A DNA stretch of 64,000 nucleotides. Origin: Candidatus Zixiibacteriota bacterium. Its GTDB lineage: Bacteria; Zixibacteria; MSB-5A5; WJJR01; JAJRUJ01. The position numbers were made by a program, and so were the translations under genes. The DNA is taken from contig JAGVQM010000019.1 in NCBI GenBank assembly GCA_020051695.1, positions 79,937 through 143,936 of the forward strand. Direction: 5' to 3'. This document shows positions 8,363 through 47,530 of this stretch, piece after piece. The number at the start of each line of letters is the position of its first letter. Position 1 is the stretch's first letter. The notes under the pieces are model-generated. The model was not told the origin of the DNA, ran no database searches, and saw nothing but the letters and a program-made list of their open reading frames with translations.

Positions 8363-8397
8363 TTGACAAATAAGAGTTGCTACTAATTAATAGTAAC
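8363..8397 (+). promoter_or_regulatory. sigma70-like promoter (TTGACA, 17-nt spacer, ATTAAT) overlapped by a near-palindromic candidate PerR/Fur operator GTTGCTACTAATTAATAGTAAC
   Basis: TTGACA lies 35 nt upstream of the Fur-family start. The 22-mer is 18/22 self-complementary around a TAATTAAT core and abuts the ATG at 8398. Confidence 0.45.
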
Positions 8398-8862
8398 ATG
8401 CAAAAGTGGACCGGCACAACAACACCGGAAATGCTGCGCGCCGGATGTCGGGAGTACGGGTTGCGCATCACCCCGCAACGCACGGCGGTCTATGAGGAAG
8501 TGTGCCGGTCCGGTACACACCCCACCGCGGAAGAATTGCACGCCGGCGTCAGGCGGCGTTTCGCAAACATTTCACTGGATACAGTCAATCGGACGCTGCT
8601 TACGTTTGCCCGCATCGGGTTGATTGAGATCATCGAGGGGTATGGCGGCCCACGGCGGTACGATCCGAACCGCACTTTGCACCATCACCTGCATTGCCTG
8701 CGCTGCGGGACGGTAGTAGATTTTTATCACGAGGAATACGACACTCTTGCGGTCCCGGCAAACCTCCAACACAAATTCAAGGTCCTCAGCAAAAAGGTTA
8801 TATTGAAGGGTACATGCGGCCGGTGTCAGAGCATAAAGAAAAAACATCACGACAGAAAATAG
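8398..8862 (+). CDS. Fur-family transcriptional regulator (PerR-like)
   Basis: Winged-helix N-terminus, HHxHxxCxxC motifs (HHHLHCLRCG) and a C-terminal CxxC. Immediately upstream of rubrerythrin and rubredoxin. Confidence 0.8.
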   Translation: MQKWTGTTTPEMLRAGCREYGLRITPQRTAVYEEVCRSGTHPTAEELHAGVRRRFANISLDTVNRTLLTFARIGLIEIIEGYGGPRRYDPNRTLHHHLHCLRCGTVVDFYHEEYDTLAVPANLQHKFKVLSKKVILKGTCGRCQSIKKKHHDRK

Positions 8863-8874
8863 AAGGGAGCAGAA

Positions 8875-9396
8875 ATGGGCAAGACCGAGAAAAATCTGCA
8901 GGAAGGTTTTGCGGGTGAATCACAGGCCCGCAACAAGTACACCTATTTCGCGAAGGTGGCCCGCAAAGAAGGGTACCATTACATTGCCCGGATTTTTGAG
9001 GAGACCGCAGAGAATGAACAACGCCACGCCAAGGACCAGTTTGTCCTGTTGGGCGGGCTGGGCGATACCGCCGCTAATTTGCAGGAAGCCATCGACGGCG
9101 AACACTACGAGACGACCAAGATGTACCCCAAGTTCGCCAAGGACGCCGAAGCCGAAGGCAAAAAAGCCGAAGCCGCGCTGTTCAAACTGATCGCCAAAGT
9201 CGAGGCGCACCACCGCGACCGCTATAAAAAACTCCTGGAAATGGTGAAAAACGGCACGGTGTACAAACGGGAAGAACCGATCAAGTGGAAATGCAGTGTC
9301 TGCGGCTATATCCACGAGGGCAAAGAACCGCCGGCCAAATGCCCATGCTGCAAACACCCACGGGAATACTACGAACCGGCCAATCTGGATATCTGA
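8875..9396 (+). CDS. rbr: rubrerythrin
   Basis: Diiron ferritin-like domain (ExxH motifs: EGFAGESQARNKY...EETAENEQRHAK...EAHHRDRY) plus a C-terminal rubredoxin-like CxxC...CxxC (CSVCGY...CPCC). GGGAG ribosome-binding site. Confidence 0.9.
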   Translation: MGKTEKNLQEGFAGESQARNKYTYFAKVARKEGYHYIARIFEETAENEQRHAKDQFVLLGGLGDTAANLQEAIDGEHYETTKMYPKFAKDAEAEGKKAEAALFKLIAKVEAHHRDRYKKLLEMVKNGTVYKREEPIKWKCSVCGYIHEGKEPPAKCPCCKHPREYYEPANLDI

Positions 9397-9406
9397 GGGG
9401 TTGGGG

Positions 9407-9550
9407 ATGGCAGTTTACAGGTGTGAGGTCTGCGACTATGAATACGACGAAGGTCGGGAGGACGCCCGGTTCGACGAGTTATCGGACGAATGGGTCTGCC
9501 CGGAGTGCGGCGCTGCCCGGCTGTATTTTGTAGTCGTGGAAAATGATTAA
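9407..9550 (+). CDS. rubredoxin
   Basis: 47 aa MAVYRCEVCDYEYDE...WVCPECGAARLYF with two CxxC pairs. The ORF-track ORF starts upstream; the internal ATG at 9407 follows a GGGG-rich ribosome-binding site. Confidence 0.85.
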   Translation: MAVYRCEVCDYEYDEGREDARFDELSDEWVCPECGAARLYFVVVEND

Positions 9551-9652: not shown

Positions 9653-10177
9653 TCAGCCCTTTAATTTTTTGCCGATCAAGTCTTTCAGCGCGCGCAGGGT
9701 GGCCGGGTCGGCGTCGTCGATGATGTTTTTCAGGTCGTTTTGCAGGCGGACCTGTTCGGCCAGGGTCTGTTCGTCTTTTGTGGTGTCCAGACCCAGGATT
9801 TGTTTGACCGCCGCGACGTAGTTGTCGGGTTTGACCGGTTTTTCGAGGTAAATCCCCGGCCCGGACATCGTCAGCTCCCGCAGGTCGGCCTTGCCCACGT
9901 CATCGCGCGCGTGGCCGGTCACAATGATGATCGGGATTTTGGCCCACTGTTTGTTCCTGGTCAGATCGCGGTAAAACTTGGCCCCGGATTTTTTGGGCAT
10001 CACCAGATCGAGCGAAATCAAATCGGGTACCTGCTGTTTGACTCGTTCCAGCGCCTGGAACCCGTCCTCGGCGGTGATCACCTCAAACCCGGCCTCGATT
10101 AACGCTGCCTGCAGAAACTTCCGCACATCGGCTTCATCATCAACGACCAGCACTGTTTTTTTACCGGTATCAGACAT
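9653..10177 (-). CDS. response regulator, receiver domain with a short C-terminal extension, no DNA-binding domain
   Basis: VLVVDDEADVRKF...D...LDLVMPKKSG receiver motifs; 174 aa. Confidence 0.8.
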   Translation of the reverse strand: MSDTGKKTVLVVDDEADVRKFLQAALIEAGFEVITAEDGFQALERVKQQVPDLISLDLVMPKKSGAKFYRDLTRNKQWAKIPIIIVTGHARDDVGKADLRELTMSGPGIYLEKPVKPDNYVAAVKQILGLDTTKDEQTLAEQVRLQNDLKNIIDDADPATLRALKDLIGKKLKG

Positions 10178-10210: not shown

Positions 10211-11680
10211 TTACACTTCATGTTTGAACAACGCCATCAGTCTTTTTCGGGGGAACTCCATGCGAAACCTCGCGCCCCGGCCCGGCGTGGAATCGACGAT
10301 GATTTTCCCGCCGTGTTCCTGCACGATTTTCCGCGTGGTCAGAAGCCCCAGCCCGGTGCCCTCGCCGCCTTTGGTGGTGAAAAACGTCGTGAAAATTTTC
10401 TTTTTAATCTCATATTCGATGCCGCTGCCGTTGTCGGCCACATCGAAGACCAGTTTATCGCGAGTGTCCCTGATCCGCAACACGACCTCGGTGCCCTTCT
10501 GCTTGCCCATCAAACAGGCGTCGATGGCATTGGACACCAGGTTGGTCAGACAGGTATGGATGCCGTCGGGGTCCAGCGGCGCGCGCCGCAGGCGGGGGGG
10601 AAGATCGGCTTTCAGCTCGATCCCCGACTGGGCCGCGATATTCTTGTACAAATCGATGATTTCGGTGACGAGGCCCCGGGGATTGATCAGCTTCAGTTCC
10701 GGGAGCCGGCCTTTCGAAAAACTCAGGAAGTCTTTGACCAGTGAGGTGGTTTTCTCGAAGTTGCGTTCGAGCATTTCCCATCCCTCGCCGATCATCTTCT
10801 TATCATCTTTCTTCAGTCCCAGGCTGACGATATACTTGCCGCCTTCCAACCCCATGAGGATGTTCTTGATGCTGTGGGCCAGCCCGGCGACGGTCTGCCC
10901 CACCGCGCCGAGGCGTTCGGCCTCGATGACGTCATGTTCCAGCCGCTTGACTGCCGTGACATCGGTGGAAATTTCGATTACATGCTCCACCGGCCCGCGC
11001 CCCCGGGTCAAAGGCGAGGTGGAGACGACGTAGTGAATTTCCTGCCCGCGTTTGCCCACACCGACCTTGCTGGATCGATGCGGCTTGGCGTCATGAAACG
11101 TCTTGGCGGCGGGACAGTTGCGGCACCGCGACGTGCGGCGCTTGTAGACTTCATAGCAGTAGTGTCCCCGCACGTCGCCGAAGCTGTCCCGGAAACTTTC
11201 ATTAGCCCGCACAATCCGGTAATCGCGGTCAATTACGGTAATGAAACAGGGGACACGGTCGAACAACACCTGGATTTGCTGCTGCCAGCGGTCGGTTTCG
11301 GTGACCGCCCGGGTCATCTCCAGCACATATTCAATCGGCCCGCCTTCGCTTTTCCGCAGCGCGACACTGTGGCCGACATAATGGGCTTGCCGGCCGTACT
11401 GGTCGATGCCCACGGCGTCGGCGACTCGCGGCTTGCCGTCTTCAAAGACCTTGCCCGAAACACAATCATCGCAGGGGCGGTTCAGCTTTTTATAGACGGC
11501 GTAGCATTTTTTCCCATGCCAATCACCGAAATATTCGGCAAAGTTGTCATTGGCCTCTACGACATTATAATCGCGGTCGATGACCGCGACATTGTACGGC
11601 ACCTGCTGAAACAACGTCGCGAGGACCATGTCGTTCAAGCGCCGCGATGTTTTTGCCCGTCGATTACGCATGCCGTTCAT
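10211..11680 (-). CDS. sensor histidine kinase with two Cys-rich PAS-like modules
   Basis: Two repeated sensory modules, each carrying C-x(9-11)-C-x2-C (HGKKCYAVYKKLNRPCDDCVSG and RGHYCYEVYKRRTSRCRNCPAA). These are followed by HisKA (H at VAGLAHSIKN) and a HATPase_c (NLVSNAIDA...GTGLGL). Confidence 0.8.
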   Translation of the reverse strand: MNGMRNRRAKTSRRLNDMVLATLFQQVPYNVAVIDRDYNVVEANDNFAEYFGDWHGKKCYAVYKKLNRPCDDCVSGKVFEDGKPRVADAVGIDQYGRQAHYVGHSVALRKSEGGPIEYVLEMTRAVTETDRWQQQIQVLFDRVPCFITVIDRDYRIVRANESFRDSFGDVRGHYCYEVYKRRTSRCRNCPAAKTFHDAKPHRSSKVGVGKRGQEIHYVVSTSPLTRGRGPVEHVIEISTDVTAVKRLEHDVIEAERLGAVGQTVAGLAHSIKNILMGLEGGKYIVSLGLKKDDKKMIGEGWEMLERNFEKTTSLVKDFLSFSKGRLPELKLINPRGLVTEIIDLYKNIAAQSGIELKADLPPRLRRAPLDPDGIHTCLTNLVSNAIDACLMGKQKGTEVVLRIRDTRDKLVFDVADNGSGIEYEIKKKIFTTFFTTKGGEGTGLGLLTTRKIVQEHGGKIIVDSTPGRGARFRMEFPRKRLMALFKHEV

Positions 11681-11697: not shown

Positions 11698-12081
11698 TCA
11701 GGAAACCAGCTCCTCGATGGTCTGTATGTATTCTGCCACATCGATCGGTTTTTCCATGAACCGCTCGGGCGCGGGGACCGACGCATCGGAGACGTACGAC
11801 CGAAAATCAAACGTCCCCCCCTGTCCCACACCGCTGATGATAATGACCGGGATATGCCGAAGGGCGGGGTCCTGTTTCAGCCGTTTATACATTGATATGC
11901 CCGATTCCCGGGGCATCATGATGTCCAGGCAAATGACATCCGGGTGCACGTCCGCCGCCGCCGCCAGGCCGGTTTCGGCGTCCAGCGCCACGGTCGGGGT
12001 ATACCCGTTGGCCTCCAGCACCGCCGACAGATACGTCGTGATATCCGGTTCGTCGTCGACCAGAAGAATATTTCTACTCAT
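11698..12081 (-). CDS. response regulator, single receiver domain
   Basis: Start moved to MSRNILLVDDEPDITTY (ATG at 12081, overlapping the upstream gene's stop by 8 nt). D-D-K receiver signature. The longer track ORF upstream is low-complexity. Confidence 0.8.
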   Translation of the reverse strand: MSRNILLVDDEPDITTYLSAVLEANGYTPTVALDAETGLAAAADVHPDVICLDIMMPRESGISMYKRLKQDPALRHIPVIIISGVGQGGTFDFRSYVSDASVPAPERFMEKPIDVAEYIQTIEELVS

Positions 12082-13948
12082 CGTCTGCACCTGTTTGTTC
12101 AACGGGACCGGGCAGGACCACCCGATTAAACTCTGCCGCCCGGGGATTGTCCCACACCGCGGCCTGCAGATATTCGGGTGGCACGGTTTCATGGCAGGTG
12201 GCACACAACGCCAGATCGGGTTTGTCCGCCTGCAACGCGGCCTGTTCCCGATGGCAGGTAATGCACTGCTGATGCAGGATATCGACATAGGCCGGCGCGA
12301 GATAACCGTCCGCAATAATCGGCGACCCCGGTGGGATTAAATCGAGGTGGCAGGCATCGCATTGTTTGGCCGTTGATCTTTGGCGTTCCAGACCCGGTGT
12401 ATGGCACTCGCCACAGGCCAGTCCGGCGCCCTGTGCGCTGCCGTGCCGGTCGTGGCCGAACATATCGGTGGCTGTGTACATCGCCCGGTGACATTCCCAG
12501 CAGCCGGTCTCCCGGTCCAGCGGTTTGTTCATGTGGTGACAACTTACGCAGGACTCCCGGCCTCGGGTGGTGTCGATATGGGCGGCATGGTTGAACAGCA
12601 CGCCGTAACCGTCGTGGTTCCCGTCAATATACAGCGTATCACCCCCCCGGGCCTTTTCGACAACGACGGTTTCGATTCCTTTGCTTTCCAGTTTGTGCCC
12701 CGGCAGCAGCGCAAAACCCAGGGCAAAACTCATGATGAACGCCAGTGAGTATTTGGTGCGTGCGGAGACGACCGGCTCACCCAGCCAGACTTCGGAGGTA
12801 TGGTCGAAAGAAGCTCCCGCATGCTTGTCGGTCTCCGGGTGTCGCGGGCGTTGTTCCCAGATATGGAATTTCTCAATGGCAAACAGGAACGCCAGCGCGG
12901 CAGCGGACACGACACCCAGACTGATGATAATTTCGGTCCAGGACGGCACATAGGTGTCGCCGGTGGCGCGCAGCATTGTCAACCCGCCGACATTGATCCG
13001 GTTGAAGATCATCCCGAACACAACCAGCGCCGATCCTGCCCACTGGCCCGCCGCGCTGTTGCGCGTGCGGGGGATGGAAAAGATGATGATCGGGATAATC
13101 ACCGAGATCATCAGCTCGGCGATAAACAGGTAACTTTCCCAGGTACCGGCGAAAATCAGACCAAACTCGCCGGACCACACCAGCTCCGCCATTTTGACGG
13201 CCAGGTAAATCCCCAAAACCCATACCGCGGCTTTACCCAGTTTGGCCACGAGGTGCGTTTCCGGTTTGCGGCGGTACAGCCAGTGTGACACCAGACTTTC
13301 GAACGAAACCATCATCAGCCCCAATGCTGCGGCCGAAATAAAAAACAAGACCGGCAGGATCTCGGAATACCAGAGCGGATGCAGCTTAAAGGGCATGATC
13401 AAAAACAGCGACCCCAGCGACGACTGGTGCAAGGTGGAAAGCATGATACCCAGCAGCACAAGGGGAAACCGAAAACGCATCAGGAACGCACGGATTTTCG
13501 CATACCGGCTGAATTCCTCCAGCGGTACCGGCGAAAATTCCAGCAACAGCACAGTCGTGTACAGCATCACGCACCAGCCGACTTCAAACAGCGGCGAATG
13601 CGGGTTCCAGAAGATGATCATGTGCCAGATATTCCACGGCAACCCCAAATCAAACATCAGACCGAACACCACCGCGATGTAGCCCAAAAAGGCGGTCAAT
13701 ACCGCCGGTTTGACCAGCGGGTGGAATTCCTCGCGTTTCATGATGTAAAAAATGGCGGTAATCACAAAGCCGCCGCCGGCCAGCGCTACCCCGGCCATCA
13801 CATCGAAGCCGATCCACAGTCCCCAGGGTGTCGCATCGGTGAGGTTGGTCGTGGCGCCCAGCCCGAAGATGAACCGGGTCACGCCCACTGCCGCGGCCAG
13901 CCCGGCGATCAGCCACAAAATCAGTTTGGTATTTTGCACTCTGTTCAT
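12074..13948 (-). CDS. NrfD/PsrC-family polytopic membrane subunit fused to a C-terminal hexaheme cytochrome c domain
   Basis: The N-terminal roughly 390 aa are NrfD-like TM helices (PWGLWIGFDV...). An extra TM follows, then six CxxCH motifs (CVSCH, CWECH, CGECH, CDACH, CITCH, CATCH). Confidence 0.75.
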   Translation of the reverse strand: MNRVQNTKLILWLIAGLAAAVGVTRFIFGLGATTNLTDATPWGLWIGFDVMAGVALAGGGFVITAIFYIMKREEFHPLVKPAVLTAFLGYIAVVFGLMFDLGLPWNIWHMIIFWNPHSPLFEVGWCVMLYTTVLLLEFSPVPLEEFSRYAKIRAFLMRFRFPLVLLGIMLSTLHQSSLGSLFLIMPFKLHPLWYSEILPVLFFISAAALGLMMVSFESLVSHWLYRRKPETHLVAKLGKAAVWVLGIYLAVKMAELVWSGEFGLIFAGTWESYLFIAELMISVIIPIIIFSIPRTRNSAAGQWAGSALVVFGMIFNRINVGGLTMLRATGDTYVPSWTEIIISLGVVSAAALAFLFAIEKFHIWEQRPRHPETDKHAGASFDHTSEVWLGEPVVSARTKYSLAFIMSFALGFALLPGHKLESKGIETVVVEKARGGDTLYIDGNHDGYGVLFNHAAHIDTTRGRESCVSCHHMNKPLDRETGCWECHRAMYTATDMFGHDRHGSAQGAGLACGECHTPGLERQRSTAKQCDACHLDLIPPGSPIIADGYLAPAYVDILHQQCITCHREQAALQADKPDLALCATCHETVPPEYLQAAVWDNPRAAEFNRVVLPGPVEQTGADDE

Positions 13949-13951
13949 CGG

Positions 13952-14710
13952 CTAGTCCTCGTGTGTGCCGTCTTTGCCGGCCAGTTCCATCCGGCGGCGG
14001 ATAATCCAATTCAGGCCGTACATCAGCCCGCCCATCCCGACAAACGCGAATGGCACGGCGTTCATCGCCTTCGCCGTAGTCTGGGGCAGCGGCCGGGTCC
14101 CCGGATTCGATGTATAGGCCAGGAAATCCAGATTAATATCGGAGATATATAATACTGAGGTGCCCCCCACCTCGTGTTCGCCCCAGATATGATCGATGTA
14201 CAATTCGGGATTCCGGGCGATTCGCGAGCGCGCCTCGGCGATCAGCGCGTCCCGTTCACCGAAGATCGTGGCTTGTTTCGGGCAGACCTCGGTGCAGGCG
14301 GGTTGCTGACCCTGTGTTATTCGATCATAACACAAAATGCATTTTTCCACGTACGGCACGGGCTGGTCCCAGTCATACCGGGGAATGCCGTACGGACACG
14401 CCATCATGCAGTACCGGCAGCCCAGGCATTTTTCCCGATCATACACCACCGCGCCCTGCGCGGTCTGATGCAGCGCGCCGACCGGACAAGCCGAGGCGCA
14501 CGCCGGTTCGAGGCAATGGCGGCATTGCTTGCGTACATAGTGGTCTTCTTGTTTTTTCAGTATCGCCGTCCAGTTGTCGGCCGACAACCCGTCGGTTTTC
14601 TGCCAGTACCGCGGCACGTCCAGCTCGAGCCGGTTGGCCTGCTTGCAGGCAGCCACGCACTCCAGGCAGCCGATACACCTGGTGACATCGGTCAGGATAG
14701 CCGCACTCAT
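13952..14710 (-). CDS. 4Fe-4S ferredoxin-type iron-sulfur subunit (NrfC/PsrB/HmcB-like) with C-terminal TM anchor
   Basis: Four Cys clusters (CIGCLECVAAC, CRHCLEPACASACP, CLGCRYCMMACP, CILC...CTEVCP) and a C-terminal hydrophobic helix. Confidence 0.8.
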   Translation of the reverse strand: MSAAILTDVTRCIGCLECVAACKQANRLELDVPRYWQKTDGLSADNWTAILKKQEDHYVRKQCRHCLEPACASACPVGALHQTAQGAVVYDREKCLGCRYCMMACPYGIPRYDWDQPVPYVEKCILCYDRITQGQQPACTEVCPKQATIFGERDALIAEARSRIARNPELYIDHIWGEHEVGGTSVLYISDINLDFLAYTSNPGTRPLPQTTAKAMNAVPFAFVGMGGLMYGLNWIIRRRMELAGKDGTHED

Positions 14711-15411
14711 ACCGGCGCTCCTTTCTTATTGAGGGTCGTGCCGACCGCATCGTCGGTTTCTGCCGGGAATTTCCAGGCCAGAGTGGAGATAAACTGGGAC
14801 AGCGGCAGCAGCACGCAATGCGCGATCTTGGTGAACGGGATCAGCACAAAAACCAACTCCGCCGCAAGAATGTGAATCAGCATGATTGTGCGGTATGTCC
14901 CCGGCGCAAGACCAACATTGGTGCACAAAAAGCCGGTCACGAAGGGTACGCTCAACAACAACGGCCAGAGATAATCCTGTTTGCGGCTGAGAAAACTCGA
15001 CGGCCGGCTGAATAAGCGGCCGACGAACAAGGCGAAAGCAAAGACAATTGTGCCGGCCGTCAGCCAGTCGGCAACCGCTTTGGGCAGTGTCGGCCAGGAT
15101 ACGCCGACCGCTTTTTGCCAGAGTTGCACGTGGGCAAAAAGAAAAAGAGGCACGAGCAGCAACCCCACATGAAAGGCGATGGACAGGATGCTGTAGAGCG
15201 GCCGGTTGCGGAACACGCGATTGACCGGGACAAACCATTGCAGTGTGCGCCGGGCAATCAGCGGCCAGGGCAGGACCTTGTCTCCGGCGCGCCGATAGGC
15301 TTCATACGCCCCATACAAATCCAAAAGCAGAATCCGGGCCAGCCCGAGCACCATGATCAGGAAACAAAAACGAAACAAAGGGCCTTGTGCAAAAGCCAGG
15401 AAACCGTCCAT
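14707..15411 (-). CDS. NarI/DsrM/HmcE-like membrane cytochrome b subunit
   Basis: 234 aa with five or six TM helices and conserved His in helices (FHVGLLL, LIHILAAE, KIAH). Gene boundaries overlap its neighbours by 4 nt, indicating translational coupling. Confidence 0.6.
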   Translation of the reverse strand: MDGFLAFAQGPLFRFCFLIMVLGLARILLLDLYGAYEAYRRAGDKVLPWPLIARRTLQWFVPVNRVFRNRPLYSILSIAFHVGLLLVPLFLFAHVQLWQKAVGVSWPTLPKAVADWLTAGTIVFAFALFVGRLFSRPSSFLSRKQDYLWPLLLSVPFVTGFLCTNVGLAPGTYRTIMLIHILAAELVFVLIPFTKIAHCVLLPLSQFISTLAWKFPAETDDAVGTTLNKKGAPV

Positions 15412-15414
15412 CGT

Positions 15415-16941
15415 CTACTCCTCTTCCCCGTTATGGTCATCCGGCCGGGCCGGCACTTTGAGCGATTCATCAAAAATAATGGCTTTGTAGATCAAATCAT
15501 GCAATCCCACGACCGCGCAATCGATCTTCTGGTCTTCGACCAGCTCGCGGAGCTGTTTTTTGCAATTGGCGCAGGGGGCGACCAGAATTTCGCAGCCGGA
15601 CTTGCGGATCTGATCGGCTTTCAGTTTCCCGCCGACCGTCGTGCGGTAGGGCCGTATTTCATCGATGGAGACCGTGCCGCCGCCACCGCCGCAACAGATG
15701 TTGTCCTCCCCCGAGGGAGTCATTTCGACATAATTGGGGCAGAAATCTTTGAGCAGCTCGCGGGGTTTGTCGATGATCCATCGCTGACGAGCAATGTTGC
15801 AGGGATCGTGATAGGCCACTTTCTGGGTGACAATTGTCGGATCGAGTTTGAGCCGGCCTTCTTTCCAGACCCGATGGGTATATTCCATGATATTTATCAC
15901 CGGGTACGCGTCTTTTCCTCCGCAGTATACCGGCAGAAAATACTTGGCCGAACGGGAGGCATGGCCGCATTCGCCGATCAGCACGTTTTTGCCCTTAAGC
16001 CGTCTGGTCTCGGCATCGATCTTTTTAACCACCCGCTCCAGGATGCGGTCGCTGTAAAACAGTCCATAGTTGATGCCGTCAAAGTATCCGGTACCGGTCG
16101 TCCAGGAATCCCCGGTTGCAGTGAACACCGCAGCAATGCCCATCAGCGTTTCGGCTTCCATCAAAAAATCGCTGACCGCCGGGAAAAACACATAATCGGC
16201 GCCTTCGACGTCCAGGGGGAACTTAATGGCGACCCCCTTTTCCTCCTGCATATCGTCGGAAAGGAATTCCAGAGTATCGATGAGGGCAGGGACCGGAATG
16301 GCCGAGGTATTGCCGGAGTCGCCCTCCAGTTGTTCCCGGGTGCTGACGACCAGCGCGCGCGGCGCGATGCCGATCTCGCTGAGAATATACCGGCCGAGGT
16401 GCGTCAGCAGACCATGATCGATCCCGGACGGGCACTCCAGCGCACAGCGGCGGCAGGCCGTACAGTTCCAGAAACTCTCGGCCATTTCCTCGATCTTTTC
16501 ATCTGTCAGATGTCCGGTTCCCGCCAGCCGCCCCCGCAGCATCCCACCCATCGTGAAATGACGGCGATAAATGCTGAGTAATAACTCCGACCGATAGCAG
16601 GGAATATCCTTCAGGTCTCCGGTGGCTTGAAAAACCTGGCAGGTGACGGCACACCGCGAACACTTGGCGCTCAGGCGGATGTAATGGTCCAGCGCCAGGC
16701 GGTAGTTCGAATGTTTCAATATCGCGGCGAAGGCCTCGAGGAAGCGGCGCGGCCGGTCGGCAACGTCATAGTCCTCGACATGGTAACGCACATTGAGCCG
16801 CTGCCGCTCATTGACCTCCGGTTTTCGCGCTGAAACAAACGCCCGGTCGCGTTCTTCGGGGGTAATCATTTTGGTTTTCATCGATACTCCGTGCTGTTCA
16901 ATCATCCGGCTTGGTGGTTTGGTCCCGGTCCGGTCATTCAA
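15415..16941 (-). CDS. HdrD/DsrK/HmcF-like Fe-S protein with two CCG domains
   Basis: N-terminal ferredoxin-like CxxCxxC...CP motifs (CSRCAVTC, CTACRRCALECP) and two CCG-type Cys motifs (DPCNIARQ...NICCGGGGG, APCANCKKQ). Confidence 0.75.
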   Translation of the reverse strand: MNDRTGTKPPSRMIEQHGVSMKTKMITPEERDRAFVSARKPEVNERQRLNVRYHVEDYDVADRPRRFLEAFAAILKHSNYRLALDHYIRLSAKCSRCAVTCQVFQATGDLKDIPCYRSELLLSIYRRHFTMGGMLRGRLAGTGHLTDEKIEEMAESFWNCTACRRCALECPSGIDHGLLTHLGRYILSEIGIAPRALVVSTREQLEGDSGNTSAIPVPALIDTLEFLSDDMQEEKGVAIKFPLDVEGADYVFFPAVSDFLMEAETLMGIAAVFTATGDSWTTGTGYFDGINYGLFYSDRILERVVKKIDAETRRLKGKNVLIGECGHASRSAKYFLPVYCGGKDAYPVINIMEYTHRVWKEGRLKLDPTIVTQKVAYHDPCNIARQRWIIDKPRELLKDFCPNYVEMTPSGEDNICCGGGGGTVSIDEIRPYRTTVGGKLKADQIRKSGCEILVAPCANCKKQLRELVEDQKIDCAVVGLHDLIYKAIIFDESLKVPARPDDHNGEEE

Positions 16942-17689
16942 TATTCATAGAGGCCCGTTCGTGGTTGCGCACGGGGCCTTTGAGGATCGGCAATTTATTA
17001 CTTCCAACCGCTATTGTCTGCGTATCGCCGGCTTCAGGATCGAGTAGTTCAATCCCGTATTCCCGGCAGAACTTGGCTACTGTCGGGTTGGCGGGGCAAA
17101 CGTAGACCCGAGCATCATAATCCGCGCCGGTCGTGTGATGAAATTCCACGATTTCATGTGTCGCATTATAGGTGTGCGCCCCGCAGCAGACAGCGACTTT
17201 GACCATCCGTCCGCAGACCGGGCAGGTTATCCGCGCGACCAGATCAACCAGGAAGGAGTCTTCTCCCGGCCCCGCTTCGGCCTGGTATCCGTGCTGTTCG
17301 AACAACTCCCTGGCCCAGCCGATCAATGCTTGATGGTCGCAGGAAGTGGTCAGCACATCCGCCGCCTGCGCCTCGACCCGGAGATCGCCAGCCAGGAAGG
17401 CCTTGATCGCCGGGCGGACCGGGCCGGTAACATTTTGGATAACCGAAATTCCGGAGGCGGCGAGCATATCCCTGTAAGAGCCTTTAATCCCGTTACAGAT
17501 GAGGGTGCCGACGCGGTGGATTTGGAGCAAGCGCACCCGCCGATACCCCTCCGGTCCCGCGCATTCAACGTGGGTCTCGGTACTTTTGCGGTTTTTCTCC
17601 TGGGTGATGACCAAAAAGTACCGGGCCGCCTCAAAGCGGGGGGCGATGATCTCACCCAGATATGGAATTGCAACTTTCATCGGTGCCAT
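16934..17689 (-). CDS. NifX/NafY-like (dinitrogenase FeMo-cofactor-binding fold) protein with Cys-rich C-terminal extension
   Basis: N-terminus MKVAIPYLGEIIAPRFEAARYFLVIT...ICNGIKGS...GISVIQ matches the Nitro_FeMo-Co family pattern. The C-terminus carries CPVCG...CCGAH...CPAN. Confidence 0.6.
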   Translation of the reverse strand: MAPMKVAIPYLGEIIAPRFEAARYFLVITQEKNRKSTETHVECAGPEGYRRVRLLQIHRVGTLICNGIKGSYRDMLAASGISVIQNVTGPVRPAIKAFLAGDLRVEAQAADVLTTSCDHQALIGWARELFEQHGYQAEAGPGEDSFLVDLVARITCPVCGRMVKVAVCCGAHTYNATHEIVEFHHTTGADYDARVYVCPANPTVAKFCREYGIELLDPEAGDTQTIAVGSNKLPILKGPVRNHERASMNIE

Positions 17690-17703
17690 CTCAGCCGCAC
17701 GTA

Positions 17704-17720
17704 TTGCATGGCCCGTGCCA
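17704..17720 (-). promoter_or_regulatory. sigma54 (-24/-12) promoter TGGCACG-N4-ATGCA
   Basis: Minus strand reads TGGCACGGGCCATGCAA, with the GG and GC dinucleotides 12 nt apart. It sits between the upstream sigma54 activator gene (ending 17864) and the NifX-like/redox-complex operon (starting 17689). Confidence 0.55.
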
Positions 17721-17863
17721 ACAGTTGTCTGTATGGCTTTCGTGTTGATTTTCAGCGGTTTGGACTTTTAAACCGATGGACAACGTTGCAGGTGATGCAA
17801 CATGTCGCGTTGCGTCGCAACGTGAAATCGTTGCATCTGACAAAAATATCGGGCGAGAACCAG

Positions 17864-19246
17864 TTAATGACAGTTATCAGGATCGATGCGATGACGCTTG
17901 ATTTTGCGCCAGAGGGTCGTGCGGTGGATTTGCAGGTCGTCGGCCGCGCGGCCGAGATTGCCGTCATGTTTTTTGAGTGCGGATAACAGCCGTTCATGTT
18001 CATCAATGGTCCGGCTGATCGGTGTCGCGTCACTGTCGCCGCCGGCCGGAGAACCGGTCCCCAGCAGTTCCGCCGGGAGATGTTCCTGCTGGATGATCGT
18101 CCCGTGACAAATCACGAAGCCGTATTCAATGATATTCTCCAATTCACGGATGTTGCCCGGGAAGTCATGCCGCATGAGAATGCTCATCACCTCCGGGCTG
18201 ACACTGATGATTCTTTTGCCCCGGCGGGCGTTGAATTTTTTGATGAAATGGTCCACGAGATACGGAATGTCCTCCCGCCGCTTTTTCAACGGCGGCAGTT
18301 CGAATTTGACTACGGCCAGCCGGAAATACAAATCATCGCGGAATTTGCCCTGGGCCACCATTTCCTTGAGGTCTTTGTTGGTGGCCGCAACGATGCGAAT
18401 ATCCGCGCGGACCGGGGTGGTGCCGCCGACCGGTTCGTACTCCCGCTGCTGCAACAGGCGCAGGAGTTTGACCTGGGTGGACAGCGGCAGCTCCCCGATT
18501 TCATCGAAAAATACCGTGCCTCCATCGGCCGAAGCCAGTTTCCCCGGTTTGTCCTGTTTGGCGTCGGTGAACGCCCCCTTGACATACCCGAAAAGCTCGG
18601 ATTCGAACAACTGCAGCGGCAGTGTCCCGCAATTGATGATCAAATGTTTCTGGTCTTTGCGCGGGCTGAGACTATGAATCGCGTGGGCAAACAATTCTTT
18701 GCCGGAACCCGAAGGCCCCTGGATCAACACCGTGCTTTCGCTTTCGGCAATATCGGGCAGGATCGCAAACAGCTTGTGGATTTCGGGGCTTTTGGAAATG
18801 ATGTCCTCGATTGAATATTTCCGGTCAAGCTCCTTGCGCAGGCGTTCGATCGCCGACAAATCACGGAACGTCTCCACGGCGCCCAAAACCCGGCCGTCGT
18901 CATCCCGTAACACCGCAGTGGAGATGCTGATCGGGATTCGTTCGCCCCGGCTGTCGATGATACTCACCGGTCGGTCGATAGTTTCCACTCCGGTCTTCAA
19001 TGTCTGGTCCAACAGGCAATGCTCGCAGATATCCGAATGGAGCACGTCGGCGCAGTGTTTGCCGATGGCCTGGGACGCGGGGATCCCGGTGATCCGTTCG
19101 GCCGCCGGATTAAAACTGGTGATGATCCGCTTGCTGTCCACGGTGAACACACCGTCGGCAATCGAACTTAAAATCACCTTGAAAAATTTCAGACTTTCCG
19201 GCGATTCACTCATCGCTCTACGCGCCTTTTCCCGGGTATCCTGCAT
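17864..19246 (-). CDS. sigma54-dependent transcriptional activator (PAS, AAA+ sigma54-interaction domain, Fis-type HTH)
   Basis: PAS region (FTVDSKRIITSFNPAAERITG), Walker A GPSGSGKE, GAFTDA motif, ESELFGYVKGAFT, and a C-terminal HTH (RTTLWRKIKRH). Start placed at MQDTREKA. Confidence 0.85.
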   Translation of the reverse strand: MQDTREKARRAMSESPESLKFFKVILSSIADGVFTVDSKRIITSFNPAAERITGIPASQAIGKHCADVLHSDICEHCLLDQTLKTGVETIDRPVSIIDSRGERIPISISTAVLRDDDGRVLGAVETFRDLSAIERLRKELDRKYSIEDIISKSPEIHKLFAILPDIAESESTVLIQGPSGSGKELFAHAIHSLSPRKDQKHLIINCGTLPLQLFESELFGYVKGAFTDAKQDKPGKLASADGGTVFFDEIGELPLSTQVKLLRLLQQREYEPVGGTTPVRADIRIVAATNKDLKEMVAQGKFRDDLYFRLAVVKFELPPLKKRREDIPYLVDHFIKKFNARRGKRIISVSPEVMSILMRHDFPGNIRELENIIEYGFVICHGTIIQQEHLPAELLGTGSPAGGDSDATPISRTIDEHERLLSALKKHDGNLGRAADDLQIHRTTLWRKIKRHRIDPDNCH

Positions 19247-19398
19247 GATGCAGGATACCCGGTTTGTTGTACCACACAACCGGTCTATTGCCCGGCAACG
19301 GCACTCTTTATACGAGAGGACCGGGGTTTTGTCAATTCCGCCGGCCGCGCAAACATCAACTGCCTGCCCCGGTTGTGATACCCGCACTCCGGCCCCGG

Positions 19399-19800
19399 TC
19401 AGTTTTGATGCCCGGGGCAGATATGCGGCTCACCCGAATGCTGTGCGTGCCCCCGGCAGGCCTGCCGCGGGTCGATCTCGGTCAGTCCGCCGCTTTGCAT
19501 CTGCGCTACGATTTCACTGACGGTTTTTCCATCGGCCAGGTACGTCTTAATGCCCTCGCCATTCAGCGTTTCCACCGCCCGCCGTCCCATGCCCGCGCAG
19601 ACCACACAATCGATGTGGTGGCGCGCCAGCTGGGTCATCGGGTGGCAGGTCCCGTGGTCGTGGTGGGCAGTGCGGTTCTCAAGGATGGTCACTGCGCCGT
19701 CATTAGTGTTGATCAGCGTGAAAAACGGCGCCGAGCCGAAATGATCGCTGACCGTGTCTTCCAGCCCCAGGTTACCGTTCGTCGGGATACAGACCAACAT
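19399..19800 (-). CDS. NifB/NifX-family (Nitro_FeMo-Co fold) small protein
   Basis: MLVCIPTNGNLGLEDTVSDHFGSAPFFTLIN...DCVVCAGMGRRAVETLNGEGIKTY matches the family pattern (xIAxPS...HFGxAPxFxIYD...G...A...L...GI). Start at the internal Met. Confidence 0.65.
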   Translation of the reverse strand: MLVCIPTNGNLGLEDTVSDHFGSAPFFTLINTNDGAVTILENRTAHHDHGTCHPMTQLARHHIDCVVCAGMGRRAVETLNGEGIKTYLADGKTVSEIVAQMQSGGLTEIDPRQACRGHAQHSGEPHICPGHQN

Positions 19801-20092
19801 CGCAGACCTCGCTTTCCTGTACATTGACCAAAATGGCGTAATTTTCGATCATCGCTTCGATAATTTTCTTCCGCGCATCATAGAGCATCCGTTGAATGGT
19901 CCCGCGTGAAACACCCATCCGCCGCCCGGCCTCCTCCTGCTCCAACCGCTCGACATCACAAAGCCGCAATGCCTCAAATTGGTCCAAGCTGATCTGCACG
20001 GTCTTCATCCGGTGCAGTGGAATCCCCTGCGGTTTGTAGACCCGGTCAGCGTGATATTTGCGGCAGCAGCGTTGTTTCTTCGGACGGCCCAT
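19772..20092 (-). CDS. DUF134 family putative DNA-binding protein
   Basis: MGRPKKQRCCRKYHADRVYKPQGIPL...LEQEEAGRRMGVSRGTIQRMLYDARKKIIEAM: N-terminal CC pair plus a sigma70-region-4-like HTH, as in DUF134 proteins that pair with NifX-like genes. Confidence 0.6.
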   Translation of the reverse strand: MGRPKKQRCCRKYHADRVYKPQGIPLHRMKTVQISLDQFEALRLCDVERLEQEEAGRRMGVSRGTIQRMLYDARKKIIEAMIENYAILVNVQESEVCDVGLYPDER

Positions 20093-45115: not shown

Positions 45116-47267
45116 CCGGCAAGAATTCGCGGCGGCACTAAAAGGAATACAGAATCTGGATTGCGCTGACGTTGTCGAGATATCGGCAATTGCGTCCGGC
45201 AGACTACATTTGTATGCCGCCGACGCGTTATACCATTCAGGCAAATACGACGATGCCCTCGAACATGCCAATCTGGCAATCGGACATTTCAGACCTACTG
45301 ATGCGCATTCGCTCTATGGTCGTGCGAAATATCGGCGAGGTTATATTCTTTTGACTGTCGGGGACTATTCTCGCAGTTCGGATGAATTCCGGGAAGCGTG
45401 GTCCGCTTATAAACGTATCGGAGATCAAGAGGGTGAACTATCGTCATGCAATTGTTTGGCTCGATGTGCCTTTTGCCAAGGCCAATACGATAAAGCGAAA
45501 GAATATCTTGTGCATTCCATCGATTTATGCGAGATATTCGGTGACAAAGCCCGAAAGGATGCAATACAAGCCAACTTGGGCGTTGTATTGACTCTTTTGG
45601 GAGATTTTTATTCCGCTAAATCGATCATGCAGATTGCAGAGTCTTCATTAGATGCAATGCCATATGCAAATCAATGCAATACTCATGGAATGGTGGCATA
45701 TCTTTTAATTTTGATGCGTGAATTTGGAGCGGCGACTGAACATCTCGAGAAAAAATATGCAATTGCAAAGGCTCAATTATTAACTCGTCGATTGGCCGTC
45801 TACCACGAATACGCCGGCGAACTTTGTTTCTGGCAGGGCGATTACGAAAAGGCCGAGGAGCACTACCGCGAGGCGATCAAAATCGGGATGGAGATTGCCC
45901 CCGAGGGTGACCTGATCAGCCAGTCGTATCGGCTGCTGGCCGAATTGCAGGTGGCGCGTAATCAGCTGGATGATGCCGAGGAATCCTGCAACCGCGCCTG
46001 GGCCGTCGCGGAGAAGATCACCGAACGCCTGGAACTGGGAGCCATTCAGCGCACCCGCGGCGAAATCGCCGCCCGCCGGGGAGATGCCGAGGCCGCCCGG
46101 ACGGCCTTCGATGAGGCCATCCGCATCCTGAGCGAGATCGGCGCGAAATACGAACTGGCCCGCGCACACCTGCAGGCCGGTGAGGCCGAGGTGTTCAACA
46201 ACGAATATCGAATATTAAATCTCATGGCCGCCCGTGTGCTGTTCGACCGGATTGGTGTGGCCTACTGGCAGGAACGGGTCACCGGGCATATCAAAAAGAT
46301 GGTGCGCGCCGCAAGCGCCGTTTATTTGCGGCCGCCGCCGCCGGCCCGCGCCGCCGAGCCGGTAATCGCCGTCTCCGCCCCCATGAAAAAAATCCTGGAC
46401 TTCCTCGCCAAAGTCAAAGATACCGACGCCACGGTCCTGCTGCTCGGCGAAACCGGGGTGGGTAAGGACCATTTGGCCCGGCATATCCATTACACCAGCA
46501 GCCGGGCGGATAAACCGTTCGAAAACGTTGCCGCGGCGAATTTCCCCGCCGAGTTGTGGGCCAGTGAGTTTTTCGGCCACGAAAAGCACGCGTTTACCGG
46601 GGCCAATGAGGCCAAAATCGGGATCCTCGAACGCGCGAACGGCGGCACGGTCTATCTCAACGAAATCAGCGAGGTGCCGCCGGATTTCCAGCTCAAGATG
46701 CTGCATTTTCTGGAATCCCGGGAGGTCACGCGGCTGGGCGGGTCCAGACGGATCGCCCTTGACATCCGGTTTATCGCCGCCTCCAATAAGAACCTGCTGG
46801 CGGAAATTGATGCCCGAAGGTTCCGCCGGGATTTGTACTACCGGCTCAACCAGGTTCCGGTGGAGATCCCCCCGTTGCGGGAGCGGCCGGGCGACCTCGG
46901 GGAACTGGTGCGACATTTCCTGACGCTGTATAATTACCCGCCCCACAAAATCCGGCATCTGCTGGATTCTCCGTTTTATGATTTGCTGCAGAGCGCGGCC
47001 TGGCCCGGCAATGTCCGGCAGTTGGAGCATTTGCTTCGCCGGTTGACCATCCTGGCCAACGGCGCAGACCCCGAGGCCATGCTCCAGATCGCCCGTGAGG
47101 TTTTGGCTGATGAGAAGTTGCTGCCCGATCCCGAGCGCGAGAAATTATTGGCAATATTGAAAGCCAATGACTGGAACCAGCGAAGGACAGCGCGGGAGCT
47201 GGGGATGGCCGAAAGTTCGCTACGAAAAACCATGAAGCAATTGAAAATCAACCGCTTGCCGGAATGA
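45060..47267 (+). CDS. sigma54-dependent transcriptional activator with N-terminal TPR-repeat sensor domain (no receiver domain)
   Basis: TPR-like repeats over residues 1-430. AAA+ sigma54-interaction domain (LLGETGVGKDHLARHIH, EFFGHEKHAFTGA, GGTVYLNEISEV). C-terminal Fis-type HTH. Start codon uncertain (45060 or 45078). Confidence 0.85.
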   Translation: MSNYTTMSAVLDTIADLIDRQEFAAALKGIQNLDCADVVEISAIASGRLHLYAADALYHSGKYDDALEHANLAIGHFRPTDAHSLYGRAKYRRGYILLTVGDYSRSSDEFREAWSAYKRIGDQEGELSSCNCLARCAFCQGQYDKAKEYLVHSIDLCEIFGDKARKDAIQANLGVVLTLLGDFYSAKSIMQIAESSLDAMPYANQCNTHGMVAYLLILMREFGAATEHLEKKYAIAKAQLLTRRLAVYHEYAGELCFWQGDYEKAEEHYREAIKIGMEIAPEGDLISQSYRLLAELQVARNQLDDAEESCNRAWAVAEKITERLELGAIQRTRGEIAARRGDAEAARTAFDEAIRILSEIGAKYELARAHLQAGEAEVFNNEYRILNLMAARVLFDRIGVAYWQERVTGHIKKMVRAASAVYLRPPPPARAAEPVIAVSAPMKKILDFLAKVKDTDATVLLLGETGVGKDHLARHIHYTSSRADKPFENVAAANFPAELWASEFFGHEKHAFTGANEAKIGILERANGGTVYLNEISEVPPDFQLKMLHFLESREVTRLGGSRRIALDIRFIAASNKNLLAEIDARRFRRDLYYRLNQVPVEIPPLRERPGDLGELVRHFLTLYNYPPHKIRHLLDSPFYDLLQSAAWPGNVRQLEHLLRRLTILANGADPEAMLQIAREVLADEKLLPDPEREKLLAILKANDWNQRRTARELGMAESSLRKTMKQLKINRLPE

Positions 47268-47272
47268 TTGGG

Positions 47273-47307
47273 TGCGCATGCGCAGTCTGCGAGTGCGCAT
47301 GCGCAGT
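47273..47307. repeat. two copies of a perfect 12-bp palindrome TGCGCATGCGCA within a 15-bp direct repeat GTGCGCATGCGCAGT
   Basis: Copies at 47274-47285 and 47295-47306, 9 nt apart, starting 6 nt after the activator's stop codon. Confidence 0.5.
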
Positions 47308-47471
47308 TTAAGTATAACGGAAACAACGCATTCAGCAGCGATGACAGTCTGAGTGTGCCAGGTTCTTTGATAACTCAACCCGACGCCCGACTCGGGAGAC
47401 CCAGGCAGAAAATTCCAGATTGCTATCAACGCCAATAACATAACAAGTTGTCGGCGATCTTAACACCCAAT

Positions 47472-47487
47472 TGGCACGCTCCCTGCT
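47472..47487 (+). promoter_or_regulatory. sigma54 (-24/-12) promoter TGGCACG-N4-CTGCT
   Basis: GG and GC are 12 nt apart. 43 nt downstream come GGAGG and the ATG at 47531. Directly downstream of the sigma54 activator gene. Confidence 0.55.
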
Positions 47488-47530
47488 AATACATCCCGTG
47501 ACGTTAAACTTTTAACCACGGGAGGATGCC

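Follow-up and report, generated by a model that had tools for sequence, protein, structure and literature searches.

Organization of the locus

We describe a gene cluster for a predicted transmembrane redox complex on a 64,000-nt stretch of DNA from Candidatus Zixiibacteriota bacterium (assembly GCA_020051695.1, contig JAGVQM010000019.1, positions 79,937 to 143,936 of the forward strand). This whole stretch is called the window here, and position 1 is its first nucleotide. Among the components of the complex is an NrfD-family membrane protein fused to a six-haem c-type cytochrome. Between 9653 and 19387, every long open reading frame (ORF) with family support in the ORF list of the window lies on the minus strand. 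The features of the locus are:

17864–19246, minus strand: gene for a sigma-54 enhancer-binding protein (EBP) with PAS, AAA+ and HTH_8 domains (PF00158, 215.7 bits; PF00989; PF02954)
17779–17840, no strand: candidate enhancer (upstream activating sequence, UAS) with TGCAAC/GTTGCA inverted repeats, 60–120 nt upstream of the −24/−12 element
17705–17720, minus strand: putative sigma-54 −24/−12 promoter TGGCACgggccATGCA, from the motif and its conserved position in relatives
16934–17689, minus strand: NifX-like first gene, 251 aa, two domains (PF02579)
15415–16881, minus strand: DsrK/HmcF/TmcB-like cytoplasmic Fe-S protein (F-like), 488 aa (PF02754 CCG, Fer4_8, NF045796)
14707–15411, minus strand: NarI-type membrane dihaem cytochrome b, HmcE/TmcC-like (E-like), 234 aa (PF02665, NF045723)
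13952–14710, minus strand: HmcB/HybA-like Fe-S subunit (B-like), 252 aa (Fer4_11, NF045715)
12074–13948, minus strand: NrfD-cytochrome fusion gene (C::cyt), 624 aa (PF03916 with PF02085/PF14522)
12839–13948, minus strand: HmcC/HybB-like NrfD-family domain of the fusion, aa 1–370 (PF03916, NF045714)
12689–12745, minus strand: 11th transmembrane (TM) helix of the fusion, aa 402–420 (hydropathy; conserved in the alignment)
12074–12688, minus strand: predicted hexahaem c3-like periplasmic domain, aa 421–624 plus stop codon (six CxxCH, PF02085, PF14522)
11698–12081, minus strand: stand-alone receiver-domain response regulator (PF00072; syntenic in most loci)
10211–11680, minus strand: cytoplasmic PAS-PAS histidine kinase (PF08448 twice, PF02518; syntenic)
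9653–10177, minus strand: second receiver-domain response regulator, last gene of the conserved module (PF00072; syntenic in most loci)
19399–20092, minus strand: accessory pair upstream of the EBP gene, a DUF134 protein (19772–20092, PF02001) and a single-domain NifX/ORP-like protein (19399–19824, PF02579)

The original prediction, made from the sequence of the window, had placed five genes at 12074–17720 and named their families. The five ORFs are present there, on the minus strand and in the predicted order, and the expected domains are matched by profile hidden Markov models (HMMs): PF02579 in the NifX-like protein, PF02754 and Fer4_8 in the F-like, PF02665 in the E-like and Fer4_11 in the B-like subunit, and PF03916 with PF02085/PF14522 in the fusion. 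Some starts lie inside longer reading frames. The EBP ORF is open to 19387, with its probable ATG at 19246; the F-like ORF spans 15415–16941, with a probable ATG at 16881 preceded by GGAG 8 nt upstream; and the likely start of the NifX-like protein is the second ATG, at 17680 (MKVAIP).

The genes of the complex are translationally coupled, as had been proposed, with a 3-nt gap between the F- and E-like genes, an ATGA overlap between the E- and B-like genes and a 3-nt gap between the B-like gene and the fusion. The proposed end of the operon at 12074 has to be abandoned, as the stop codon of the fusion overlaps the ATG of the response-regulator gene by 8 nt (ATGAGTAG). Only 17 nt separate this gene from that of the histidine kinase, and 33 nt separate the kinase gene from the second response regulator. 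The operon runs on into all three of these genes, and a terminator scan found no clear operon end past the second response regulator.

Subunits and cofactor sites

The F-like subunit contains two [4Fe-4S] motifs, a GECGH motif and one complete CCG motif (C361, C396, C397, C437, C440) of the kind that ends in CxxC, here C-A-N-C. Its cysteine ligands are 100% conserved in 65 sequences. The NCBIfam matches are to DsrK (NF045796, 281 bits, cut-off 400), HmcF (198.3, cut-off 750) and TmcB (198, cut-off 735), and a PDB sequence search with this subunit gave a single weak match, 9ojn_A. The E-like subunit has five TM segments, and four of its histidines (His81, His94, His180 and His198; 99–100% conserved in 69 sequences) are predicted to bind two haems b; it matches TmcC (NF045723, 125.7 bits, cut-off 240) and HmcE (112.3, cut-off 275). 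The 16 cysteines of the B-like subunit are 100% conserved in 75 sequences and point to four [4Fe-4S] clusters. The C-terminus of this protein is a conserved TM tail followed by RRR, and its matches are to HmcB (NF045715, 250.6 bits, cut-off 420), HybA (199.7) and DsrO (105.7). For the NrfD part of the fusion, HmcC (NF045714, 311.4 bits, cut-off 550) is followed by HybB (288), with no match to DsrP, and the haem domain is matched by NF045713 to the HmcA C-terminus. The Hmc profiles are thus the best or near-best matches, each below its equivalog cut-off. By these scores, the subunits are relatives of the HmcB, HmcC, TmcC-HmcE and DsrK-HmcF families and not members of them.

The NrfD-hexahaem fusion

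Pfam places the NrfD domain of the fusion at aa 35–318 and the cytochrome c3/c7 domains at aa 479–589. The PF03916 score of 58.3 bits, against a gathering threshold of 25.8, assigns the protein to the NrfD/PsrC family, and a Fer4_11 gene adjoins it. Hydropathy indicates 10 TM segments in the NrfD part, followed by a K/R-rich linker, the 11th TM helix and the haem domain. By inspection, the positively charged loops alternate as the positive-inside rule would have them for a cytoplasmic N-terminus. A cytoplasmic N-terminus and 11 TM segments would place the haem domain in the periplasm, which fits the periplasmic location required for c-type haem attachment. The predicted count of six CxxCH motifs is exact (aa 467, 483, 512, 530, 562 and 582). 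All six are invariant in a 17-sequence alignment, and six further histidines (H454, H457, H472, H499, H502 and H559) are invariant in 17 homologues; together, these presumably suffice for six bis-His haems.

The fusion itself is genuine. At least 120 sequence clusters hold proteins of 595–635 aa that are 64–100% identical and all carry both NrfD and cytochrome domains. A frameshift artefact is ruled out, as the single ORF is kept in more than 100 clusters. The original prediction had also called the fusion atypical; it is real, but it is the norm of a large family found across the Fibrobacterota-Chlorobiota-Bacteroidota (FCB) group and not peculiar to this genome. An exhaustive HMM search with the 11th TM helix and haem part returned only 336 clusters at 50% identity. 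The full-length proteins among them are matched mostly at the C-terminus of 600–673-aa sequences, and a few proteins of 220–255 aa resemble stand-alone, N-terminally anchored versions of the haem part. From this placement and these short versions, we infer that the fusion resembles an NrfD gene to which a DsrJ-like, membrane-anchored cytochrome has been added. In public annotation, the protein appears as 'Ni/Fe-hydrogenase cytochrome b subunit' or 'molybdoenzyme membrane anchor', labels that mislead metabolic reconstructions.

Conservation and gene order in relatives

A scan of one genome per GTDB species identified 352 genomes that encode a relative of the fusion. Synteny was examined by tblastn of eleven window proteins against the best 80 of these 352 loci, which belong to metagenome-assembled genomes of Zixibacteria, Ignavibacteria, Melioribacteraceae, Kryptoniota and unclassified Bacteroidota. 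In most of the 80 loci that are long enough, the order is EBP, NifX-like, F, E, B, C::cyt, response regulator, histidine kinase, response regulator, and the core F-E-B-C::cyt is present wherever the contig allows. Identity to the window protein is highest for the F-like subunit (73–86%), followed by the B-like subunit (64–78%), the fusion (58–72%), the E-like subunit (51–68%) and the NifX-like protein (39–54%); the second response regulator is 64–78% identical and is syntenic in most loci. The cofactor ligands of the F-, E- and B-like subunits are invariant or nearly so in 65–75 sequences. The operon is therefore real and widely conserved in anaerobic FCB-group bacteria. The searchable literature yielded no description of the fused cluster, in a coverage that lacked the NrfD-family survey likeliest to list it.

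Two Ignavibacterial loci (L063, 11261–16195, and L069, 14205–17572, minus strand) have, a few kb away, a second F-E-B-C::cyt cluster of divergent sequence, with identities of 38% for the fusion, 48% for B, 35% for E and 58% for F, the last in L063 only.

Relation to Hmc, Tmc and DsrMKJOP

The complex had originally been labelled 'DsrMKJOP/Hmc-like'. The resemblance is right, the best NCBIfam families being HmcB, HmcC, TmcC/HmcE and DsrK/HmcF, and the label needs shifting toward Hmc and away from Dsr. The architecture belongs to the Hmc/Tmc/Dsr class. Like Hmc of Desulfovibrio (Nitratidesulfovibrio) vulgaris, it combines four core modules: a tail-anchored NrfC-type ferredoxin, a 10-TM NrfD-type protein, a NarI-type cytochrome b and an HdrD-type subunit. 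Both also have a cytochrome of the c3/HmcA type, and both are accessory transmembrane conduits that coexist with DsrMKJOP. In contrast to the separate 16-haem HmcA, the six haems are here fused to the HmcC-like protein through the 11th TM helix. Neither a separate 16-haem HmcA nor a small membrane protein like HmcD is encoded, since no further ORF lies between the coupled genes, and the order is F-E-B-C rather than A-B-C-D-E-F. Further differences from Hmc are the signal-less Fe-S subunit, the additional NifX-like gene, the predicted control by sigma-54 with an OrpR-like EBP, and the hosts, which are FCB bacteria rather than Desulfobacterota. The hmc locus itself encodes regulators of hmc expression (10.1101/2023.11.02.564894). 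Here, by comparison, the complex genes are followed by the kinase gene, flanked by those of the two response regulators. In D. vulgaris, rrf1 and rrf2 lie downstream of hmcF.

With TmcABCD, the complex shares a c3-type periplasmic cytochrome, and TmcC is the best match to the E-like subunit. Tmc has no NrfC/NrfD module, and the TmcC and TmcB scores of the window proteins lie far under the respective cut-offs. A covalent fusion of a quinone-interacting membrane domain to a periplasmic multihaem c domain is also found in CbcL of Geobacter, which is alike in concept. The membrane domain of CbcL is a dihaem b protein of the HydC/FdnI type and not a cofactor-less NrfD, and CbcL is not known to have HdrD- or NarI-type partners. 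The features that set the present complex apart are the covalent NrfD-hexahaem fusion, the signal-less ferredoxin, the protein with a NifX fold and five cysteines, and the PAS regulators with Cys triads.

The likeness to DsrMKJOP raises the possibility that the cluster is the lineage's own version of that complex, a rearranged dsrK-M-O-P::J that would reduce DsrC-trisulfide with menaquinol in the terminal step of sulfite respiration. Both systems combine a NarI-type b cytochrome and an HdrD-type subunit (GECGH, single CCG cluster) with an NrfC-type, an NrfD-type and a membrane-anchored cytochrome c component, so the architecture fits the two Dsr modules and the electron path is likely the same. 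The F-like subunit scores best against DsrK and has the GECGH motif and a single CCG motif, a combination common to DsrK, HmcF and TmcB (PMC10861901). The CCG motif of the F-like subunit ends in C-A-N-C and not in C-x-x-D. This Asp is not universal among DsrK paralogues (PMC10861901).

The genomic context is suggestive at first. Of the 80 loci, 16 have true dsrA (TIGR02064, 586 bits, cut-off 393) and dsrB (513 bits, cut-off 341.5) directly after the cluster, 1.5–8 kb downstream on the same strand. All 16 loci are without the EBP and NifX-like genes. One of the dsr-linked loci (L066) reads F, E, B, C::cyt, a Zn-ribbon protein, dsrA, dsrB, an 82-aa ORF, dsrN, a dsrL-like gene and dsrC. Two further contigs, contig_24922 (L028) and contig_31526 (L043), have the sigma-54/NifX-like form of the module with dsr genes about 10 kb downstream: dsrA, dsrB, an 82-aa, dsrD-sized ORF, dsrN, a dsrL-like gene and dsrC, then an RsbRD_N (dsrT-like) gene and a full canonical dsrM-K-J-O-P.

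This co-residence decides the matter. A replacement of DsrMKJOP by the cluster is rejected, as the canonical dsrTMKJOP follows dsrC on the same contigs as the module. In L082, the co-resident set has a DsrK ending in C-A-I-D, a trihaem DsrJ and a DsrO with an RRRF twin-arginine signal. The window proteins are only 29.5% (F-like versus DsrK) and 27.7% (B-like versus DsrO) identical to these. DsrJ binds three haems, one of them with His/Cys ligation, in contrast to the six presumably bis-His haems of the fusion, and the O-like subunit here carries no twin-arginine translocation (Tat) signal, unlike DsrO. Its preference for HmcB over DsrO, and the match of the P-like part to HmcC without one to DsrP, also speak against a Dsr identity. 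We thus regard the cluster as very unlikely to be the lineage's own DsrMKJOP. Because relatives carry the module and canonical dsrTMKJOP on one contig, it is an additional Hmc-like complex that stands beside DsrMKJOP, as Hmc and Tmc do in Desulfovibrio.

A protein of some 370 aa whose N-terminal part is a zinc ribbon of the InsA/IS1 type is found near dsrA in L066 (6573–7679), L065 (10449–11579), L081 (8529–9638) and L082 (6690–7796). It lies beside or just upstream of dsrA; in L082, it is on the opposite strand, about 2 kb off. Judged by its conservation and position, it is more likely to be a regulator than an active transposase.

The signal-less Fe-S subunit

In all 77 homologues, the B-like subunit begins right at the first of its Fe-S motifs, and no N-terminal export signal was found in any of the 77 loci. 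A missed upstream start is ruled out, as only about 1–17 in-frame codons precede the start before a stop codon is reached in 76 of these loci; the exception (L068) has a long open stretch upstream that is not a signal. Residues 2–4 of the B-like subunit align to positions 36–45 of the signal-bearing HmcB, HybA, DsrO, NrfC and TtrB profiles, and to positions 3–6 of DmsB, ArrB, QrcC and FDH3-beta, signal-less proteins that hitch-hike across the membrane on a partner. The order of tail helix and RRR and the topology of the NrfD partner would nevertheless put the Fe-S domain in the periplasm. The B protein of the second, divergent Ignavibacterial cluster is likewise without a signal.

The alignment with hitch-hikers and the lack of a signal would also fit a complex that serves as membrane anchor and conduit of an unlinked, Tat-exported hydrogenase or formate dehydrogenase. 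The B-like subunit would then hitch-hike with this enzyme, and the whole would act as an H2 (or formate):cytoplasmic-disulfide oxidoreductase, as proposed for Desulfovibrio Hmc. HybA and HybB are the second-best family matches, and there is a precedent in a signal-less, tail-anchored ferredoxin that, with a HybB/NrfD-like partner, adjoins a Tat-dependent periplasmic [FeFe] hydrogenase (10.1101/2023.11.02.564894). A gene with a Tat signal is, however, absent from the conserved 9–11-gene module in every locus examined, and the fused hexahaem domain already provides a periplasmic entry for electrons. We consider such an anchor role unlikely. For the export step itself, an unlinked Tat partner that would carry the B-like subunit across the membrane is our preferred explanation, since the published signal-less ferredoxin rides a Tat-dependent hydrogenase.

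The NifX-like protein

A NifX-like first gene with an additional cysteine module, co-transcribed with the complex, was part of the original prediction and is borne out by the PF02579 match (35.9 bits) and by invariant C-terminal cysteines. The N-terminal domain (aa 1–105) has the NifX/NafY/ORP fold, and an alpha/beta domain follows at aa ~113–251. The family is narrow, with 111 clusters, nearly all of 240–273 aa; three are truncated at about 200 aa and two are longer. Invariant residues are C65 in the N-terminal domain and C156, C159, C168, C169, G170 and C208 in the C-terminal half. The spacing CPxC-x8-CCG-x38-C uses the same vocabulary of five cysteines as the CCG motif, in another order.

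In the AlphaFold model (31 sequences; predicted local distance difference test, pLDDT, 87.7), Foldseek matched the N-terminal domain only, to 2yx6, 2qtd, 2wfb, 1p90 and 9ian_F (among PH0822, MJ0327, orange protein 2wfb, NafY and NifX). The C-terminal domain has no Pfam family and no confident structural match, with weak RNase-H-like Foldseek matches only (E ~1e-3, TM-score ~0.2). Its order of secondary structures is similar to that of the NifX fold; at an HHalign probability of 2%, we do not claim a duplicated domain.

The fold alone is that of NifX/NafY, carriers of the iron-molybdenum cofactor. A role in nitrogenase maturation is excluded on context, because no nif genes were found in the window or the syntenic loci. 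We infer instead a family-specific accessory protein that may be a metal- or cluster-binding partner or a maturation factor. A bolder reading would make the complex a distinct, FCB-specific respiratory machine in which the DsrK-like subunit has in the NifX-fold protein a dedicated partner in the cytoplasm, one that carries either sulfur or redox equivalents, much as DsrC does, or the non-cubane cluster, and the signal-less ferredoxin reaches the periplasm by an unrecognised route or docks to an unlinked Tat enzyme. Taken as a whole, this reading is rather improbable; if true, it would add a new electron-input branch to dissimilatory sulfur metabolism.

Small PF02579 proteins also occur around the module. 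The DUF134 and NifX/ORP-like pair upstream of the EBP gene is found in the same place in L003, L014, L019, L030 and L033. In L081 (2776–3489), a single-domain PF02579 protein and a CGGC-domain protein (PF08821) directly follow the last response regulator, so that this pair lies downstream of the module and the window pair upstream of the EBP gene.

Proposed redox-responsive regulation

The pattern GG-N10-GC alone is not significant in the window (4 found versus 2.2 expected). Its position relative to the NifX-like gene is conserved, as it lies 20–33 nt upstream of the start in at least 26 of the 40 loci with this gene, of which 36 are usable once four at contig ends are left out. No such element was found upstream of the F-like gene in 23 loci without the NifX-like and EBP genes. 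Upstream, TGCAAC/GTTGCA occurs in 3–8 copies in all 31 loci with a spacer of less than 600 nt between the EBP and NifX-like genes, mostly as inverted repeats 60–150 nt upstream of the promoter. In the window, the UAS holds the inverted repeats I1 and I4 and the direct repeats D1 and D3. These repeats are the expected candidate enhancer for the neighbouring EBP. The position-conserved −24/−12 element, the neighbouring EBP gene and the upstream repeats together support the proposed sigma-54-driven operon, at the level of sequence.

The PAS domain of the EBP carries a cysteine triad, C-x8-C-x2-C (Cys112/121/124), that is 100% conserved in 33 homologues. A related triad, C-x10-C-x2-C, is present in each PAS domain of the kinase (Cys 59/70/73 and 175/186/189), with 100% conservation in 47 sequences. 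In OrpR, a sigma-54 activator of Desulfovibrio vulgaris, the PAS triad C52/C61/C65 holds a redox-sensitive [4Fe-4S] cluster, and OrpR activates operons for PF02579-fold proteins at low redox potential only (PMC8359166). The two systems have in common an EBP with a PAS Cys triad, a sigma-54 promoter, PF02579 genes as first targets and an EBP gene adjoining its target. They differ in the spacing of the triad (C52-x8-C61-x3-C65 in OrpR versus the putative cluster site C-x8-C-x2-C here), in the UAS (GGGCGYRTTTTGCGCCC in OrpR/orp versus TGCAAC/GTTGCA repeats here) and in the regulated operon, which here encodes a respiratory complex. By analogy with OrpR, the EBP would use an Fe-S cluster held by its triad to sense a low redox potential. 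Conservation extends to the two co-transcribed response regulators and the PAS-Cys kinase encoded between them, which may act in feedback or in a signalling branch further downstream.

The probable EBP start codon at 19246 lies at the centre of a perfect 15-nt inverted repeat, CCGGGTATCCTGCAT-c-ATGCAGGATACCCGG (19232–19262), which could serve as an operator or form a hairpin that blocks translation. TTGACA-17 nt-TATAAA (~19306–19334) is found upstream of the repeat. In L082 (3489–5243, minus strand), L081 (5046–6785, minus strand) and the flanks of many loci, HdrD/CCG-type Fe-S proteins are fused or adjacent to receivers and PAS histidine kinases, which suggests that CCG proteins near the module are wired into two-component signalling.

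Proposed function

Taken together, the locus is probably an operon under redox control. It would encode an accessory, Hmc-type complex by which anaerobic bacteria of the FCB superphylum transfer electrons across the membrane, with a functional tie to dissimilatory sulfur metabolism. By analogy, this complex most likely connects a cytoplasmic DsrK-like thiol/sulfur reductase with the periplasm or the menaquinone pool. The mechanism is drawn from the cryo-EM model of DsrMKJOP and from Hmc and Tmc. In the Archaeoglobus fulgidus DsrMKJOP structure, menaquinol is oxidised at DsrP near the periplasmic face, and electrons pass through DsrO, DsrJ, DsrM and DsrK until they reach a single non-cubane cluster, next to which lies the GECGH cysteine (bioRxiv 10.64898/2026.08.25.746951). 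In the present complex, the corresponding parts would be a hexahaem c domain tethered to a cofactor-less 10-TM quinone subunit of the NrfD/HmcC type, an HmcB-type ferredoxin, and an F-like subunit with two cubane clusters, a CCG (non-cubane) cluster site and a catalytic GECGH cysteine. The NrfD-like site would take electrons from menaquinol, or the six haems would take them from carriers in the periplasm. By way of the Fe-S chain, the haems c and the two haems b, the electrons would cross the membrane and reach the CCG cluster, with the fused cytochrome, in the role of the membrane-anchored DsrJ or of HmcA, as the link between ferredoxin and b cytochrome. At the CCG site, a cytoplasmic disulfide, trisulfide or persulfide carrier would be reduced, most plausibly DsrC or a DsrC-like protein, which is the most economical candidate where dsr genes are present. 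The reverse direction of electron flow would be possible too.

Several points weigh against this interpretation. All subunits fall below the NCBIfam equivalog cut-offs, so that function is transferred across families, and the direction of electron flow and the cytoplasmic substrate are assigned by analogy. The missing export signal of the B-like subunit and the lack of a Tat-signal gene in the module count here as well. The AlphaFold model of the fusion reached a pLDDT of only 51, and neither the topology nor any fold search relies on it. The 64-kb window was found to contain no dsr, apr, sat or qmo genes, and two Zixibacterial dsr loci with the canonical set have no such cluster within 10 kb. 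In the genome of the window, a link to sulfur metabolism would rest on orthology and not on context.

A function outside sulfur metabolism would be that of a quinol:periplasmic-acceptor reductase for metal or extracellular respiration, in which the NrfCD-like module feeds multihaem cytochromes. Ignavibacteria and Melioribacteraceae, both rich in multihaem cytochromes, account for many of the hosts, and modules of NrfCD and cytochrome have been proposed as quinol:acceptor reductases, including in Melioribacter roseus (PMC3534657; PMC9386147). Such a reductase would, however, leave unexplained the invariant cytochrome b, the strongly conserved DsrK-like subunit with its intact CCG site, and the physical linkage to dsr loci. 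It appears the least probable of the explanations considered here.

Complexes of the Hmc, Tmc and Dsr types move electrons across the membrane in sulfate and sulfite reducers. To our knowledge, they have been studied almost only in Desulfobacterota and Archaeoglobus, and it was not until 2018 that Zixibacteria and Ignavibacteria came to be seen as potential sulfite reducers. FCB bacteria have such a complex in a conserved form of their own, present in at least 352 species genomes of Zixibacteria, Ignavibacteria and Kryptoniota. In Ignavibacterial relatives, it adjoins the dsr locus beside canonical DsrMKJOP. The covalent NrfD-cytochrome fusion should be useful for structural work on how cytochromes dock between NrfCD and NarI/HdrD modules. 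The predicted periplasmic four-cluster ferredoxin without an export signal is a test case for protein export, and the sigma-54 EBP and kinase, both with Cys-triad PAS domains, form a compact regulatory circuit.

Neighbouring genes

Genes for a Fur-family regulator, rubrerythrin and rubredoxin (8377–9550, plus strand) converge on the end of the operon, placing an oxidative-stress cassette next to a low-redox operon. The stretch 45060–48463 (plus strand) holds the gene of a second sigma-54 activator, with TPR repeats, AAA+ and HTH_8 domains, after which come TGGCACgctccCTGCT at 47472–47487 and a 310-aa ORF without a Pfam family. At 37384–39246 (minus strand), a protein with a CdhD-like domain (CO dehydrogenase/acetyl-CoA synthase delta) lies beside a DsbD-type cytochrome c biogenesis membrane protein.

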